A stretch of DNA of 62,661 nt, filler included, from Asterionella formosa (Eukaryota), in assembly GCA_002256025.1 (NCBI GenBank). It is 15 parts of 15 records of this genome, joined end to end, with 100 filler letters (N's around TTAATTAATTAA, not from the genome) between each part and the next. Parts side by side here need not be neighbours in the genome. Positions count along the whole stretch, not along the records: positions 1 to 21,943 come from NKIB01002908.1; 14 more parts are not named here. One strand, given 5' to 3'. A program made the translations under genes and the position numbers. Shown here in pieces: positions 7,514 to 57,023 of the stretch. The notes below the pieces were generated by a model. The model did not search any database and was not told where the DNA came from. It saw nothing but the letters and a program-made list of their open reading frames with translations. Within the stretch, counting starts at the first letter, position 1, and every line of letters starts with the position of its first letter.

Positions 7514-9628
7514 ATGGGGAAGAAACGTAATTCTGCAAAAACGGGTGACCAAGCCCTCTATAAAAACCGGGAGACTCTTGGCTCAAAGGGAAGGAAACCC
7601 AACGAGGATGACAATGCCATGTTCAATGAAGTTGACCGTTTTCACAACGAAAGGGAAGAAGCACAGTTTCTAAAACTAGACCGAGATGCAAATGACAGCG
7701 AAAGTGAAGATGATGGCATTACAAGGACAGAAAATGTCTTGGATCTTGGTTTGGCGGACAGTAGCAGTGACGACGAGGACGACAAGAGTTCTGAGAACGA
7801 CGACAACGACCATGAAGATGGTGAGGAGGATTCGGAAGAAGGTAACATATCTTCAGACAGTAACGAAGATGAAGATGATGATCAAAAACGAGAAGATGTT
7901 CGAAATTGGGGGAAGAAAAAGTCTGCCTATTATCACGGGGACACAGCAGATTTGGAAATTGGCCAAGAAGAGGATGATGCCTATCTCGAGGAGGAAGCTG
8001 CAAAAGAGGTACTAGCTGCAAGATATGCACAAATGGAGGAAGACGATTTTGTCTTATCAGATGACGACAATGAAGTCAAGGATGAATTGGCGACAACTGA
8101 ATCGGATCTGTTGTCAGCCAGGCGCGACGTAACCAAACTGTCTCGATCCGAGAAGAAAAAATTGCTGCAATCACACCATCCAGAACTTCTACCAATGATG
8201 ACACATTTTTCGAAAGTCCTTCAAGAATATGAAAGTCGTACAAGGGTCGTGGCCAAGGTCTTGTTGGAAGACGAAGAGGGGGCATCAGAGGTAAGTTTGG
8301 ATTGATTTCGTGTGGCCAGTTGAGTGCACCCATATGATAGTCCATGCCGAGGCACAATGTGTTTCTGAGGTTTTGGAAGAAAGCGGTGCAAAAATTAGAA
8401 TTTTGAAGCCAGTGTAATCCTACGAAAAGGAAATGTTATACCGTGACCTTATTTCGCTTGTTTGGCCTTCAACACTCACACAAAAGTTCTCTCCAAGGCT
8501 GTTGGAGCGACTCCCACAGGACTCAATTACTTGGTTACCAAGTGCATGCTGCAATCATCCACCGCATTGAATGTGGCAATGTATTTGCTGCTTAAGATGG
8601 ACCAAAAGAAGGATGATTTCTTAGGAGACGACGATGAAGGTCCTTCCACTCAATCTCATCCTGTTATGGCGAGGCTGCAGCAATGGAATAGCATCGCCCA
8701 CAAGCTAGAAGACCGGGTTGAGAGTAAAGTAGACACCTTGTCAGACCAAATATCCAACTTGATCAAGGCATCAGTTCTAATGAAATCAGAAGGTGACGAT
8801 GATGACGAAAGTGAATCTCATTCTGAGGATGACGAGGATCACGACGAGACTACGCCAATAGGTGACGACGAGGAGGTTGGGTCTGACACGGTCGCTTCTG
8901 AAGTGGACGATGAGAATGACACCAAGGTGGCCAAGTCTGTCCTAAATGAAGCCCGATTCGGACTCCGACAGCAAGAAATTGTATCTGCTAGTAGCACTCG
9001 TACTCGGAGAGCTGCGCCGTCGGACTTTGGCGATGAAGAAACGGAGGAATCTCGGTCAAAGAAGGCATCTCAGTCACTATCAAAGACTGTCAACTCTCTG
9101 GAACAAAAATCTGCTACTAAGAAGCGCAAGAATGACAAATCTAACAGTGAAATTCTAGACGATCCTAATTTGGACGATGAATCTCGCTTGCAAGCAGGCT
9201 TCGACATGATGGATGCGGAACTTGGACCAGAAGAAGCAGACGAAGACGACAGAGAGATCGACGACGAGCTCAACGATGATGACGGTGATACTGATTTCTA
9301 TGAGCACATTAAAACGAAATCAAAATCTAAGAAAGCGTTCAAGAAATCCCTCTACGAAGTTGCTCCTAAGTACCCTCGTCTGGAGGCCGAAGTGAAAGGT
9401 GAACGCGCCGTTGGTAACCAGATTCTTAAGAATCGTGGACTCGTTCCTCATAAGGCCAAGATCAATCGCAATCCTCGCGTCAAGAAGCGAGAGCAATACC
9501 GTAAGGCCCTTATTCGCCGCAAGGGTAGTGTTCGTGAGGTGCGCACTGATGAGGGCCACAAGTACGGCGGAGAAGAGACGGGTATCAAGAGCGGCCTTAG
9601 TAGGTCTCGGAAATTGGGCGTCAAATAG
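7514..9628 (+). CDS. SAS10: U3 snoRNP / SSU processome protein Sas10/Utp3 (2 exons: 7514-8290, 8498-9628)
   Basis: WGKKKSAYY motif, HPELLPM, HPVMARL, and C-terminal Sas10 domain ILKNRGLVPHKAKINRNPRVKKREQY...YGGEETGIK. Phase-0 intron GTAAGT...AAG at 8291-8497. Confidence 0.92.
8323..8477 (+). ncRNA. Intronic box H/ACA snoRNA candidate (copy 1)
   Basis: Two hairpins (tgcacc/ggtgca; gaagcca/tggccttc), H box AAATTA 8392-8397, ACA 8472-8474. Pockets lie 14 and 15 nt from the boxes. A paralog at 10935-11088 shows compensatory changes. Confidence 0.75.
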
Positions 9629-10934
9629 AAATCAGCTAAAGAATAGTGGACTATTATTGTCAGCATGGCACTCCTCTGTCATTCTAAGAAAAATCGGGAG
9701 TAGGACACGAGCATTAGTATTATTCATTAGATGGTTGCTTTTCAGTCTTAGTGTTCTTGACCTTGAATTTCCGTGATTCAATGGAGTGAACCATCTTGTA
9801 TCATAGAGTGGGTTAAGCGTGATATATGGAGTCCATTTGGGGTCCACGTGTGCGACCCTAGGGATTCACAAGTTATGATTACTTTACTTATTCCAAAATC
9901 ATTTTACAATATTACAAAGACAAGATATTCTGTTACAGCGTGTGCTGCTATTGATACAAAATTTTAGTGAAAATATTTTAAACTGGAGTTGTTAGATATT
10001 AGCTGTGGATGAAAAGTATTGTGTAAGGTAGGATTATACGTATGAGAAGATGTTGATATATTGTTAGTCTGCTATGAACATGAGATTGGATCATGAAGTC
10101 TTGTACTAGTCTGTTGTGACAGAGTGAGGATGAAACGAGATTTAGGTAGAAATAATGTCGAAAAGGGGTGATATCGTTTGAGGAACGAGGCGAGCGAAGG
10201 TTAAAGTGAAGTCTTCAGAGGCTTCATCATGATCGTTCACATAAAATGAGTTGAGAAAGAGTTACGTGGGATTGTCAGCGTCTCTTGGCTGGCGATAATC
10301 GTGATGACATATGTACCAATACTAGGGATGAAGATTGGGAAAAACGCGAAGTTGTCGTGTCTGTGCATTGTCTGTTACCGGTACGTATGTTACCTCATAA
10401 TGCACAGGATTTATGCGTGCCAGTTTTACCATCTGCCAGGCATTCGACGTGGAAGTTACAACATGCGCTACCGGTACCTGGTTACCACAGTCAAGTTGAG
10501 GTATATGAGAACTTTAGCTGTGTTTTCCTTATAGTACGAGCCGACTTTTGCTGAAACTTCCTGGTACTGGTACCAGGTACCGGTACTCTAACAGGTACAC
10601 TACCAGGTGCGTACCTGGTAGCAGGTACCCATGATTGCAGGAGCAACACAACCAACAGCCGAAGCAAACAACTCATGAAGTGCCGACTTTATTTTCTCTC
10701 GCCGAGCACCGTAAATGGCAGCGTATTGGCTTCCCAGATATGTGTTGAATAGATAGTGAGAAAGCGAGAGGAATGAAATCGATTGCCACCGTTCTTATTA
10801 AACCGGTACCAACGAAATGATTCTTGAAGCAAGGATTGGCTATGAGGCAGCCAATTGAAGGGGAAGAGTTTTGACCAAGGCTATGGAAGCAAAGTTTCCC
10901 GAGGTGCGTTTTGGCTGGATTGCGCAACAAGTAA

Positions 10935-11088
10935 AGTGCATCCATATGATAGTCCATACCGAGTCACAACGTGTTTCTGAGGTTTTGGAAGAAAGCGATG
11001 CAAAAATTTAACTTATGGAGCCATTATAATCCTACGAAATCGACCTAATATGCCGTGGCCCTTTTCGCTTGTTTGGCCTCCAACACTC
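10935..11088 (+). ncRNA. Box H/ACA snoRNA candidate (copy 2)
   Basis: Diverged paralog of 8323-8477 with stems tgcatc/gatgca and ggagcca/tggcctcc, ACA at 11083-11085. The H box is imperfect (AAATTTA). Confidence 0.65.
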
Positions 11089-11333
11089 ACTCGCTGTTTA
11101 ATTCCGAATTGAAGAATTTCGTCAGGCTGTCAGATTTCCAAATTTTAGTGAGGCATCAAGTGTTAAAAATCGGGAAAGGGGGATGACGATGACTAGTGTG
11201 AAATTCTGATTACTAGAAAGATCCCAGGAAGTTTCCTTATCACTACTATGACAACAGGCAATCTCGTACAATGTTTTGTCGGTGATTTCAAAATGGTCTA
11301 TAAAGTGATTTGATACGTCGAGCAGCACTTAAA

Positions 11334-12728
11334 CTAAGCAACTTCCACCAAATCAGTCTTGTTCATGTCATCAATTGTCATGACACCCCCTCGTGCAACA
11401 TAGGCCTTGTACTCTGCCATGCGCCGTTCTAAAAGTGGCGTTCTCCCATTCTCAACTTGATCCTTCATTTGAATGCCCCAGTAGGGAACCTGCGGTGATA
11501 CTGGCCACAAGCGCCTCATATCAATATGTAATCTCATTGCTGTCAATAACAACGGCGAGATATTTTCGTACGATTCTGTTCCATCAGGAAACTTGTTGTC
11601 TACCAAGCTATCGTGACCACCAATGCGCCCTTTCTTTCCAACTCGTCGATAGTTCTTGTTGGGCAAGTGCAGCACACTAAGCGCGCCAAACTGTTCCATC
11701 GGAATAAGCTGCTGCACATGGCAGTGTTTTGTGCCGTACAGTTGCTGTGAACTCATCCAAACCCGTTGTGTACCTTCCAATGGTTGGGAGGGCCGCTTCT
11801 TCATACCGGGTCGATTCTTCACCTTGTCAAACTCACAACCAGGACGATCCTTCCAGGCTTTTAGTAAATCTCTTGTGGCCAGAAACATTCCTTGATGATG
11901 ATTTGTCATATGGACATGTGTCCTGTGAAAGGCATCTTGGGGTACGGCATCAACTGATTTTGGAATTGGTGGATGCCAGGAATGCTCCCAGTACACTCTT
12001 GTAACATTTTGTGTAGCTTGCCTTGTTTTGTCATCAATCACAATATTACTTGGAAACGAGTATTCGTACCTAACAACACCAACATTGAAATCTGATGCCT
12101 TGTCATTGCCTACTACAGATTTGACCCGTTCCGTCTCCATCAGATAGGCTGCAACCGTCTTGGGACTGACTCTTATATCATCTTCCGTATAAATAAAAAG
12201 GTCGTATTCATCAATATGTTCATAAAAGAGTTTTCTATGAAAGTCCACGAGATGCAACTGCACATTTGGAGACACCAAGATGACGGTCACAGTGAATCCT
12301 GCTCGGGGGGATCGATTGTTGCATTGTAGACGCGAGTTCAGCAAGTCTATCAGAGTGACTGGATACGCGATGGTAGCATGGATGTACACATCCACTTTAG
12401 CCCCAGCTGCACATAGATCCAGGTATGCGTCCAGCACTTCCTCCAAATGTGGTAACTGACTGAAATCATAGGCGGCAACGTCAACTAGAATCCTTGTGCC
12501 ATCAAGTATTGACGCAGCCGAATCCTTGTCCGACGTTCTTACTGTTGTGTATTCCATCATATTCCTCATACACGGCACAACACCAGAAGCAACCTTAATA
12601 TTAACAATAACCACTCCACTCAAAACAGCCCCAAGAATGAACGACACCAAAATGGAAACCACGGACGATTGTGATTTTGTGCCATGGCGGCTTCGTCGTG
12701 GTAACATACTGGGAGGCGGCGATGACAT
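11334..12728 (-). CDS. Type II membrane protein, putative glycosyltransferase
   Basis: 464-aa ORF with one N-terminal TM helix and a DxD-like motif in YDLFIYTEDDI; function is inferred. Confidence 0.7.
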   Translation of the reverse strand: MSSPPPSMLPRRSRHGTKSQSSVVSILVSFILGAVLSGVVIVNIKVASGVVPCMRNMMEYTTVRTSDKDSAASILDGTRILVDVAAYDFSQLPHLEEVLDAYLDLCAAGAKVDVYIHATIAYPVTLIDLLNSRLQCNNRSPRAGFTVTVILVSPNVQLHLVDFHRKLFYEHIDEYDLFIYTEDDIRVSPKTVAAYLMETERVKSVVGNDKASDFNVGVVRYEYSFPSNIVIDDKTRQATQNVTRVYWEHSWHPPIPKSVDAVPQDAFHRTHVHMTNHHQGMFLATRDLLKAWKDRPGCEFDKVKNRPGMKKRPSQPLEGTQRVWMSSQQLYGTKHCHVQQLIPMEQFGALSVLHLPNKNYRRVGKKGRIGGHDSLVDNKFPDGTESYENISPLLLTAMRLHIDMRRLWPVSPQVPYWGIQMKDQVENGRTPLLERRMAEYKAYVARGGVMTIDDMNKTDLVEVA

Positions 12729-21305: not shown

Positions 21306-21719
21306 GTTCTTAGATATCGTTGTCCAAACCAAAAAAAGAAAGCAATATTGTGAAGATAACAAGCAGCAATCGAAACAGGCAGTACCTGGTACTCCTACCA
21401 GTTACCAGGTCGTACCTGGGTGGGTACCTGGTACCAGGTACCGACACATAAAGTACCGGCCGGTATGCCAGTATCTTAGTACTCCGGTTTGCGGATATCA
21501 CTGCTTCATGACACAGTCTACCGGCGTATCATTTTCTCTTGATTCCGGTATCTATTACGTATCGCCTGTGATTCATGATACAAGCAGGGACCAGCATCAT
21601 TGGCTCTCGATACATTATACTCACCATTCATCATAGATTAATTAAATTTTGAAATTATGGAGTAAATTTCATAGCGTATGCTTTTGTTAAAGAACATGAC
21701 ATTTTTGGAGGTTGTGAAG

Positions 21720-42160: not shown

Positions 42161-44129
42161 CTGGTACCTGGTACCTGGTACCTGGTACCAAGGTACCAAG
42201 AAATAGTTGAACGGAGCAGGTGTGCTTTTTGTTGTTGTTGTAGCTTGTCTAGCAAATGAATTACGGACATACTGTTGCTATGTAATCTTTGCAGGAGTAT
42301 GGTGAAGGTATTTCAAGGACAAGAAAGAAGCCAGTGTGGTGCATCACTGTTGCAATTTCGCACAATGACACCTGTTCAAGAGTGACAGTTGTTCCATTTT
42401 GAATTTATGGCTTCTATTGTTTGTTCTTGCATTGTCCATACAGACATCATACCATAATGCCTGCCTTCTCTTCAAGACTATCCATTCTGAAAAAATAACA
42501 GCCTTGATTGCATGTTGCGATTTGTTTCCCATTTAGTGTGAAATGGTGGAATAAGTGAACTTCATTATTTGATAGAATTTTTAAATTAGTTGAAAAACCT
42601 ACAGAAAATCGGTTGAATGAACTTCAGAAAATGACGTAAACAAATCTTAAATTTCGTGAACGAAATTGTAAATTACATGAACAAATTTAAAATTACCTGA
42701 AGTATCTAAAATAAGTACGTAAAGGTGATCACATAATATAGTGATGATCAGGAATGCATGCATGCTACTTTGATCAAGTAATTAACTTGTGTAGGAGTAC
42801 TCCATATACTTTATACTTGCCAAGTATAGCTTTTCAGCTTACATTAGTACATATTGCCAAATATGTATATGAAACATACATTTCTTCCTCCTTGTTTTAG
42901 CTCTGATGATGTGATTGTTGAATCATGTAGCACAATATTTTATGATACAAGTACAACCAGACTTCCAATATATTTAAACAATCCTCTTCTTGATCATGTG
43001 TTTATTGTATATGTAGTGTAAGCCACTGTTGTATATCTACTTACAATAAAACCACTAGGTACCGGTACCAGGGGCACCTTGTACCAGTAGTCTAGTCTAC
43101 CAGGTATACCGGTACCTTCTGTCAAGAATATTAGCTCGAGTCACGAGGATTGTGGACTCGATTGTAATCCAACGAGTCGAATCTTGCATTGCCACGTCAA
43201 TCAGCAATCTAACGAGATCAAAGATTAAAGATTTCTATGGAAGTGTTAAGTAGAAAATCGAAGAGATTCTTAGAACAACTTTGTGGGACGAAGCAAAGAT
43301 GCATGGAAGAAAACATTTACCGGTAGTTTAGCTTATAAATTTAGATTATCAACTGAGAAAACAGTGTCATAATTGACAGGAAGGCTAGAAGCAGAGCAGA
43401 GAAAAAAGTAAGTGGCACTAGGTAGTACTACTATCACGTAAGAGTTTACGTAACCAGGCCCAGCCTGTGGGAGGTACCAGGTACTGGTACCCTGGTACCC
43501 TGGTACCACTTAAAAACTGTAAGCCACCGCTACGGCGACTTTTGAACTGTAAGCCACCGCTAAACGGAGTAAACGCACGGTTTGAACTTAGTTTACAAGA
43601 TACGCTATTTATTGTCACGAACGAGTTGTTCAGATTTATATAGCGAGTAAATACTTCCGTACTTGTATTGTTGCATTGTGTACATTGTTAATTAGGTATT
43701 ATCGCCCAAAGGTTGCTGTCGACGTGAAATTGCGAAAATTGGATATTTTCACGTTTACTCGATTGAGCAAGCATCACCTTTTATATACGTATTCAGGTAT
43801 GAGAATATTCCTCCTCTGGAAAACTAATTTAGTATCCTCTAAAATTTATTTAATATGACTACGACGGCATTGCGCTTTCGCTCGTGCGCCATAATAAAGA
43901 GATAATTTCATTAATGGAAAACGTCAAATAGGAATTCCTGGTGCGCCCGAATTATGAGTACAAAAATTAAATGCAAACACACANNNNNNNNNNNNNNNNN
44001 NNNNNNNNNNNNNNNNNNNNNNNNNNNTTAATTAATTAANNNNNNNNNNNNNNNNNNNNNNNNNNNNNNNNNNNNNNNNNNNNATGTATTCTTCTACGCA
44101 ATCACACTCAACATCCACTCATACTTGAT

Positions 44130-54525: not shown

Positions 54526-57023
54526 TGTACTTGCTGCTATGTACCTTGCTGATATGTACTTGACTTGCTTGCACACTTTTTTTTCTTTTTTTCCCCTGTC
54601 TGAGGAGGGAAGGAGGACGAGAGAAAGATTCATGTTCCATTCATGCATGTCGTGGAAATCTGTACCAGAGGTACATATATTGTAGAACCACTGTATCACG
54701 GTACCAGTAGTTGTATCTACCAATCTACTTACTAAAAGCAAGTACCCAAGTACGTAATATGATACCGTAGATGAATACCGCTTCACCGGTAGTTACCAGG
54801 TAGTCTACTGTACATCATCAATATATATATTTATATATAGAATGTACGCAGGATACAGTACTTGGAAGTATATGTATATGAATTTGTATATGCCGTAGAA
54901 TATCACGTTTTTTAAATACATGCCTGAGACGAAGTGGACTTTATGTAGAACCTACCTATCTACTACTAGACCTACTAGTCTACCTTTAAGTACATACCGG
55001 AATCATAATTCCGGTAGCTACAGTTGTGTGGTATCATCCACAGGTTCATACATACATACATATATACATACATACCGGTAGATACCCCGGTATATACTAA
55101 TATATATGATACCTATGTTGTTATGTAAACAGTACTCCATCATAGAACTGGTACCAGGTAGGTACCTGGTAGTACCCCTGCTCCGGGCAGAAGATCGTCG
55201 AGGTGTGTGTGTCATCAACAAAATGCGAGTCATGATTCATATTCAAAAAAAGCAACAGCAAGGGAGGGGAGCAGGACGGATGCATACTACTACATACCGG
55301 TAAGATTAATATACTACGTAGACTACGGTTGGTATACCCGGGTATACGACATACTGCCGGTAGGTACACACAACCACGAACGTTTAGTGTTTTATCCACC
55401 ACACACACTCCTCCTCCGACACGACATTATATCTTACTACATATCGTACTATGTAACGTAGTAGTTGTTTACGACTGGGGGCGNNNNNNNNNNNNNNNNN
55501 NNNNNNNNNNNNNNNNNNNNNNNNNNNTTAATTAATTAANNNNNNNNNNNNNNNNNNNNNNNNNNNNNNNNNNNNNNNNNNNNCGGTTTACTTGAAGACA
55601 ACATCAGCATATATCTATAGTGGAAAGATTTGTAGAAATCATCATCGCATTGCTTGATCTATTTATAAGTCGTAATGCAGGTCATAATTTCTTTTTCCTT
55701 GCGTGGTTGTTATGGAGTACGGTACAGTAGTTCGAAAATGTGGCCAATATGTTGAAGCTGAGTACATTTTATCTAGAACATCATCTATACCTGTGACTCA
55801 GTATACATACCGGTAGTCTAAATAAGGTATATATCAGAAAGCGATGTCCCAACGACAACTAACAATGCGGGTCCATTCAACCGAACAATGATGTCATACA
55901 TACAATATCTACAGGTATGTTCAAACTTAAATAAAGAACTTGCTTCCAATAATGTATATGGGGCTACCGGTTGTCGAACCCACTCTCTATACCTATTTTG
56001 AAGGATATATGTAATCTTTATCGTCACACTATGTATACACTGTAACAATGCTGTTGTTGTCGATGATTGAATCAACAATCTTATGTTTTGTATGCCGGTA
56101 TAATAATCAACATCTGGAATGTTCGAAAAGTCCATGAATGAATACCGGTATACCCATCAGCAATTACTGGGTACATACATTACGGTGAAGCTATGATGCT
56201 GCTAAGAATAGAATGACAATGTTCTGTAATTTTATCCGGAACACATTGTCGTCAAAGTCACCTTTGACTACCGGTAGTCTACCGGGACTTTTCCCAAACA
56301 GGGTTGAAAAAGAGAAAACTATTCGTAAATTCAACTGCCCATTGGCATTTGCACCACAATTGCACCACCGATTGCACCACTATTACTTAGAGAAACCAAA
56401 ATTGCACCATCAGACTACCCATATATAAAATCCGTGCTACGGCCTGCACCACCGTAGTGATATTTTCTACATAGGATCACGATCAGATTCATATAAGATA
56501 TGTATTTTGTAGTAGCCAACGGCCGTAGGCTACCCGGTACATACATGTAATGGGACATACCGGTACTAATAAAGTATTGCAAGCATTTTGTATCATATAT
56601 ATAGGTTACTACCGGTAATGAATTTTTAACTAAGGCACTCCTTGCTGATGTCATATTGTCGCTGCACCACATTGCACCAACATAGACCTACTGGTACTTG
56701 TGTACATACCTTGTCACCAGGTACCAGGTAGTCTACCGGTACTACCGGTATACTCGGCATAAGGTACGGGTATACTATCTTAGGGTACCAGGTACCAGGG
56801 TACCTGGTACTGGTATGGTACCCAGGTACCGGTACCTGGTCTACCAAGTAATTTAGGGTACCTGCACTTGTACCTGGTAACCAGGTAGAATAGTACCTGC
56901 AAGTTGAGATCATTTTGGTTAATNNNNNNNNNNNNNNNNNNNNNNNNNNNNNNNNNNNNNNNNNNNNTTAATTAATTAANNNNNNNNNNNNNNNNNNNNN
57001 NNNNNNNNNNNNNNNNNNNNNNN

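Follow-up and report, generated by a model that had tools for sequence, protein, structure and literature searches.

What is the element that lies in the only intron of the SAS10/UTP3 gene of the diatom Asterionella formosa, and which RNA would it act on? A preliminary description of this window (the whole stretch of DNA that was analysed, 62,661 nt, filler included) proposed that the intron houses an unannotated box H/ACA snoRNA, a paralog of which lies near position 10935, and that its two pockets fit domain V in the rRNA of the large ribosomal subunit (LSU). We argue that the spliced intron very probably contains a conserved two-hairpin H/ACA gene, whose product is likely released from the intron and is a predicted guide for two pseudouridylations in domain V.

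The identification of the host is well supported. The open frame read across the two exons (Table 1) codes for 636 amino acids; the second exon gives a Pfam Sas10 match (E 4e-25) and a weak match to Sas10_Utp3, and the named relatives of the protein that it encodes are diatom proteins (from Amphora, Mayamaea and Nitzschia). The intron is the sole one of the gene, and RNA contigs skip exactly its 207 nt in three of four runs. Cover inside the intron is likewise absent in three of the four runs, which is expected for a spliced mRNA. In run X6 the whole stretch is covered and unspliced, so that the cover of the intron in this run is no sign of expression.

Table 1. Features of the SAS10/UTP3 locus (copy A) and of the paralogous locus (copy B); positions are those of the window, except those given for the rRNA-containing locus L008.
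Feature	Position	Strand	Remarks
SAS10/UTP3 coding exon 1	7514..8290	+	open frame, splice donor, spliced RNA contigs
Host intron, 207 nt, GT..AG, phase 0	8291..8497	+	skipped in 3 of 4 runs; junction shared by related diatom SAS10 genes
SAS10/UTP3 coding exon 2 (Sas10 C-terminal domain)	8498..9628	+	frame, Pfam, named relatives
Copy A, H/ACA snoRNA gene	8324..8477	+	predicted ends: just before the first stem; ACA+3
5' hairpin	8325..8390	+	lower stem 8325-8330/8385-8390; upper stem 8341-8377; conserved U 8366
Pocket 1, 5' guide strand ATGATAG	8334..8340	+	complementary to L008:694-700; exact in 24 of 25 aligned sequences
Pocket 1, 3' guide strand AGA	8378..8380	+	complementary to L008:689-691; exact in 24 of 25
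H box AAATTA	8392..8397	+	14 nt from where the 3' guide strand of pocket 1 begins
3' hairpin	8405..8470	+	lower stem about 8405-8411/8463-8470; upper stem 8423-8456; invariant loop U 8444
Pocket 2, 5' guide strand GTAATCCTA	8414..8422	+	complementary to L008:724-732; core ATCCTA exact in 25 of 25
Pocket 2, 3' guide strand CTTG	8457..8460	+	complementary to L008:718-721; exact in 25 of 25
ACA box	8472..8474	+	15 nt from where the 3' guide strand of pocket 2 begins
Copy B intron, 211 nt, GT..AG	10904..11114	+	skipped in 2 of 4 runs; contig starts near 10641
Copy B snoRNA gene	10936..11088	+	variant H box AAATTTA 11004-11010; ACA 11083-11085

Both copies lie in the sense orientation within a spliced intron. 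The rules of the H/ACA class, as laid out in PMC7038934 and PMC5207380, give guides of 9–16 nt, and copy A resembles known intron-encoded guides in the succession of hairpin, hinge, hairpin and tail, in its H and ACA boxes, in its bipartite guides (10 and 13 nt here), in a target U that lies 14 or 15 nt from the box, and in a U above the pocket. Its H box is a canonical ANANNA. The boxes and the 14/15-nt spacing that had been described at first are thus present, but the fold claimed from the single sequence does not stand out from shuffled controls (z-score −0.85; 35 of 200 shuffles fold as well), and pocket 2 is closed in the minimum-energy fold. Since the single-sequence fold is at chance level, the structure of copy A rests on the comparative evidence presented below.

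The element had been called unannotated, and indeed Rfam gives no match in the window at the gathering threshold. With E values up to 10, the only matches are to two weak box C/D families (E 3.3 and 6.9; 18.8 and 11.1 bits, where the cut-offs are 70 and 75). One may ask, on the basis of these matches and of a CTGA in hairpin 1 of copy A, whether the RNA is of the box C/D type or a composite C/D-H/ACA RNA, with ATGATAG as a variant of box C and CTGA as box D. This is hard to believe: among 26 copies, the upper stem of hairpin 1 contains CTGA in just 9, the complementarity of ATGATAG to rRNA is perfect, its place is in an internal loop, 14 nt above an H box, and the terminal ACA is conserved. 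Judged from its sequence, the element is a box H/ACA snoRNA without a counterpart among the Rfam families, and thus founds a new family in a well-known class.

The paralog (10935–11090, 85% identical to copy A) is present as announced, and its pockets are the same; the first account of it has to be corrected in two respects, since its hinge carries the variant ANANNNA with no canonical ANANNA box, and since it is itself intronic. Inside the element, the two sequences agree in 132 of 155 columns; for the remainder of the introns the figures are 19 of 33 and 11 of 26, and for the exon flanks identity is down to about half. Both compensatory swaps that had been reported are seen in the alignment of the two copies: a C-G pair is replaced by U-A in lower stem 1, and an A-U pair by G-C in lower stem 2. 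When the genome is searched at the DNA level (E up to 1, very common words being skipped), two matches alone are returned, copies A and B, which disposes of the concern that the element is a high-copy dispersed repeat.

The host transcript of copy B is likely non-coding, because there is no ATG frame longer than 74 amino acids on the spliced + strand between 10641 and 12700. This host (10641–11600, + strand) runs head-on into a gene of 464 amino acids on the minus strand (11334–12728). Self-comparison of the window reveals palindromic, GGTACC-rich short repeats in the intergenic DNA at 10470–10631 and at many other places (for example 2507–2592, 21419–21442, 42163–42189 and 55148–55172). We considered the idea that the flanks of copy B are a decayed duplicate of SAS10 exons and rejected it: 68 of 1,000 shuffles score as high for the upstream flank and 141 of 1,000 for the downstream flank, and tblastn gives no convincing match to SAS10. 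The likeness of the flanks being at chance level, copying of the whole intron and an old, decayed gene fragment are both compatible with the flank data as the origin of copy B.

To compare the element between species, relatives were chosen by the host protein rather than by the RNA: an alignment of 46 exon-2 proteins served as the query for SAS10 loci in metagenomes, and the best 80 of the 116 confirmed loci were taken. Among these best 80, a whole intron is found at the same junction in 35 and a partial one in 4, while 27 read through the junction intronless and 14 stop short of it. The intronless loci are mostly contigs of about 2 kb, which are probably transcripts; five long ones look genomic. 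Long contigs are found for L068, L080 and L082 (L083 and L084 are alike), which have a divergent SAS10, an intronless junction and no match to the covariance model described below; these rows have long branches in the tree and possibly lie outside the diatoms.

The element is present in 32 of the 35 whole introns (24 distinct sequences) and absent from three (L013, L049 and L050). The position in the SAS10/UTP3 intron and the H/ACA anatomy both hold against the best 80 of the 116 related loci. We aligned 25 distinct copies (alignment A3), leaving aside that of L065, whose hinge is 134 nt long. The consensus fold given by RNAalifold comprises lower stem 1 and the two upper stems, with both pockets open; it contains no helix for lower stem 2, which is seen, with its compensatory swap, in the pair of copies A and B. 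Changes on both sides occur in 16 of the 20 consensus pairs. Under the consensus structure, 91.2% of 500 cells can pair, compared to 76.4% in shuffled alignments (none of 500 as high) and to 33–48% when the structure is slid along the alignment, although the derivation of the structure from this same alignment gives it an advantage over the slid controls.

In these 25 copies the guide columns are 99–100% conserved, as against 60–67% for the adjacent columns of the stems. The four guide strands are exact in 24, 24, 25 and 25 of the 25, a conservation that is conditional, since the 26 distinct copies were chosen by their guide motifs. In all 26, the distance from pocket 1 to the H box is 13–15 nt; that from pocket 2 to the ACA is 15 nt in 17 copies, 14 nt in 8 and 18 nt in one. 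The terminal box is ACA in 25 of 26 and ATA in the last. The hinge box is ANANNA in 14 of 26 and ANANNNA in 12, copy B being among the latter. A conserved U is found 11–13 nt above pocket 1 (24 of 25 copies) and 11–17 nt above pocket 2 (25 of 25); PMC5207380 places the U bound by Nhp2 near the same distance above the pocket. We also note that the loop of hairpin 2 ends in a conserved motif (CCAT in 8, CCGT in 5, TCAT in 5 and CTAT in 3 of 25 copies) with an invariant U, and that 22 of 26 copies have a TGA in hairpin 1, 7–11 nt above the pocket and often opposite AGA/GA.

A covariance model run over the window and the 80 loci gives 37 matches, all but one of them (L053) in a SAS10 intron or in copy B. 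It finds the elements of L065 and L063, both outside its training set, and has no match in the three pocket-less introns (L013, L049 and L050). Carriers of the element are found in all parts of a tree of 44 SAS10 rows, including beside the named proteins from Amphora and Mayamaea. The putative snoRNA is conserved across diatoms in the same SAS10 intron. The folding z-score of −0.85 would be in line with a functionless chance structure or a dispersed repeat, but the genome holds two copies only, and the orthologous position, the covariation and the near-fixed guides across divergent diatoms refute such an origin, to which we give practically no credit.

Some loci depart from this pattern. In L013 (756–899), the closest relative (80% protein identity), both lower stems and the ACA are kept and all four guide strands are lost; this would reflect either decay or retargeting. 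Free-register scans for a new target of this intron gave only the matches that are expected when many registers are tried, and none was accepted. L049 (1956–2177) and the near-identical L050 have independently lost the element from an intron of 222 nt; the sister row L063 retains the element. The 44-row tree, which has an arbitrary root and long branches that are unsure, calls for two separate changes to account for the pocket-less introns. L023 combines a mismatch in pocket 1 with the ACA spacing of 18 nt, and L038 has a mismatch in pocket 1.

L065 (4356–5000) contains, at the SAS10 junction, two back-to-back intron-like units of 367 and 278 nt in which AG is directly followed by GT. Each has a copy of the element; the second keeps hairpin 1 and is without the guides of pocket 2 (52.8 bits). 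From its sequence this pair looks like a tandem duplication of a whole intron with no exon in between. The one match of the model outside SAS10 introns and copy B, L053:2131–2197, is a partial copy (39.7 bits) resembling hairpin 1, with altered guides; it lies 3' of the SAS10 stop, where a spliced contig ends.

Which RNA would the two pockets recognize? Every U in the nuclear rRNA pieces of this genome was scored, 1,000 U in total and 1,252 after the addition of 5.8S rRNA, the stretch downstream of it and both strands of U2; parts of the 5' ends of the LSU and SSU rRNAs and U1, U4, U5 and U6 are outside the scope of the scan. A first search for the LSU rRNA had given, besides the plastid operon, a nuclear piece that was incomplete; the nuclear domain V (L008) was found by pattern and confirmed as eukaryotic LSU by Rfam. 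Another nuclear LSU fragment, L005:1–1422, is joined at its 5' side to a sequence that by eye looks like the 3' end of an LTR retroelement, which is either an insertion into rDNA or an assembly chimera.

Among the 1,252 U, the best site for pocket 1 is U692 of L008 (7+3 = 10 pairs; H box at 14 nt) and the best for pocket 2 is U722 (9+4 = 13 pairs; ACA at 15 nt). The scores are 10 and 12, and those of the runners-up 6 and 7.5, respectively. In each case the target U and the next base are left unpaired in the pocket. The two sites are 30 nt apart, both in domain V, as had been proposed. The fit of pocket 1 is borne out on the organism's own rRNA; that of pocket 2 is as well, with a pairing longer than the one first proposed, because the rRNA of this organism has an A, which pairs with the pocket, where the Rfam consensus has a u. 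Random target sets, which were tried with copy A only, reach the observed score in 18 of 1,000 cases for pocket 1, in 5 of 1,000 for pocket 2 and never in 1,000 for both. The homologues were scored against the rRNA of this genome and not against that of each species.

It may be argued that the element is a genuine H/ACA RNA, one or both pockets of which act on another RNA (an snRNA or a stretch of rRNA outside the scan), the fit to domain V being incidental. The pockets are indeed short, the score of pocket 1 alone was matched by 18 of the 1,000 random sets, and the scan covered not every stretch of rRNA and snRNA. It also speaks against our own reading that just 3 of the 10 pairs of pocket 1 are on the 3' side. 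However, the two best sites are 30 nt from each other within a single conserved region, no random set matched both scores, and pocket 2 follows a base that is specific to the rRNA of this organism. Neither U2 (both strands) nor 5.8S gave a close target for either pocket. We therefore regard another target as very improbable and keep domain V as the predicted one. As for the features of scaRNAs, U2 being the snRNA that was scanned, there is no good U2 site and, by eye, no conserved UGAG (CAB box) in the loops of the alignment.

The segments that would be bound, L008:689–700 and 718–732, flank one stem-loop, and in the Rfam structure U722 pairs with A699, which lies under the guide of pocket 1. 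The helices at the target sites are, we assume, H90, H91 and the A-loop. Setting U692 equal to Arabidopsis position 2873 puts the listed bases C2869, U2870, A2901, G2907, U2911, G2912 and U2913 on the right letters; because the modified bases of Table S2 of PMC8351944 match in this way, the predicted targets equal Arabidopsis U2873 and U2903, or yeast 2883 and 2913 according to the offset of +10 of the same table. Neither is listed there as a pseudouridine for human, yeast or Arabidopsis. In this table, Arabidopsis U2873 is a site of 2'-O-methylation (guided by snoR64) that has no counterpart in human or yeast, and 2903 is absent. Pseudouridines are reported in H90–H92 of Trypanosoma and Babesia in PMC4855143 and PMC13542104, and their positions may include one of the two sites. 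A literature search by position name for equivalent pseudouridines in other protists returned nothing relevant.

The known RNAs that come closest differ from the element. U65/SNORA65/snR34 (snR34 is listed beside SNORA65 in Table S4 of PMC7671301) is an H/ACA guide that binds the same strand of rRNA; its target, Arabidopsis U2870, yeast U2880 and human U4427 (PMC8351944 Table S2), lies three bases upstream of target 1. Unlike it, the element is in a register that leaves U692 unpaired rather than U689, has a different second target and has no Rfam match, and we conclude that U65/snR34, with its target three bases upstream, is a different RNA. Arabidopsis snoR64 aims at 25S U2873, the equivalent of target 1, but is listed under 2'-O-methylation and thus belongs to the box C/D class (PMC8351944 Table S2); no homology with it is claimed. 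More generally, the element is set apart from known H/ACA guides by the lack of an Rfam family and by the 7-nt variant of the H box in about half of its copies.

The SAS10/Utp3 gene of Ostreococcus tauri also hosts snoRNAs in its introns: according to Table S3 of PMC7671301, these are Ot-HAsno17, an orphan H/ACA RNA of 146 nt, and Ot-CDsno16. Ot-HAsno17 shares with our element the host gene family, the class of RNA and the size, but its printed sequence, inspected by eye, does not contain both guide motifs in the order needed, and in that paper it is reported in Ostreococcus species only. Orthology is thus not supported: the host is shared, and the guides differ by eye. Our searches of the literature on snoRNAs of diatoms and stramenopiles found no description of this RNA, and no diatom snoRNA catalogue or pseudouridine map; in the accessible text of a paper on the small RNAs of Phaeodactylum (PMC4247016), snoRNAs are mentioned in passing only.

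The mechanism that we propose is that of the class. The debranched intron would be trimmed by exonucleases to an RNA of about 150 nt, each hairpin of which would bind dyskerin, Nop10, Nhp2 and Gar1; one gene with a DKCLD domain (dyskerin/Cbf5) is found in the genome. Hairpin 1 would hold U692 unpaired for isomerisation, and hairpin 2 would do the same with U722. Copy B would be a recent duplicate, freed from its own intron and directed at the same predicted targets.

A different role is conceivable, in which the snoRNP is mainly, or also, a folding chaperone of rRNA: the two hairpins would attach simultaneously to one pre-rRNA, flanking the 17-nt tip of the helix that lies between the two sites, and keep the base of this helix and the A-loop helix open during the assembly of the 60S subunit. 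The position of the two bound segments around one stem-loop is consistent with this role, as are the location of A699, the partner of U722, under the guide of pocket 1, the fact that the two pockets are kept together in one RNA in 32 loci, and the precedent of yeast snR37, for which PMC13015370 reports a modifying and a scaffolding role. On the contrary, canonical pockets and spacing account for all the conservation that is seen, the alignment has no further conserved antisense element outside the pockets, and the losses in two lineages speak against an essential role. We consider the chaperone improbable, and guided pseudouridylation remains our preferred reading.

A bolder proposal, which we put forward as speculative and rather unlikely as a whole, is that diatoms pseudouridylate two sites on either side of helix 91 that are unmodified in human and yeast, one of which is 2'-O-methylated in plants; a single double-guide snoRNP would clamp both feet of the helix simultaneously and so time the folding of the A-loop in 60S assembly, and the guide would change hosts by duplication of whole introns (as copy B and L065 may illustrate), after which the SAS10 copy could lose its pockets.

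The snoRNAs and the rRNA modifications of diatoms are close to uncharted in the literature that was searched. The 26 distinct sequences described here make up a family that is ready for Rfam, and the frequency of the ANANNNA hinge suggests that about half of the diatom copies would escape standard H/ACA finders. The family comes with two precisely predicted sites beside the peptidyl-transferase centre, one of which carries a methylation instead in Arabidopsis.
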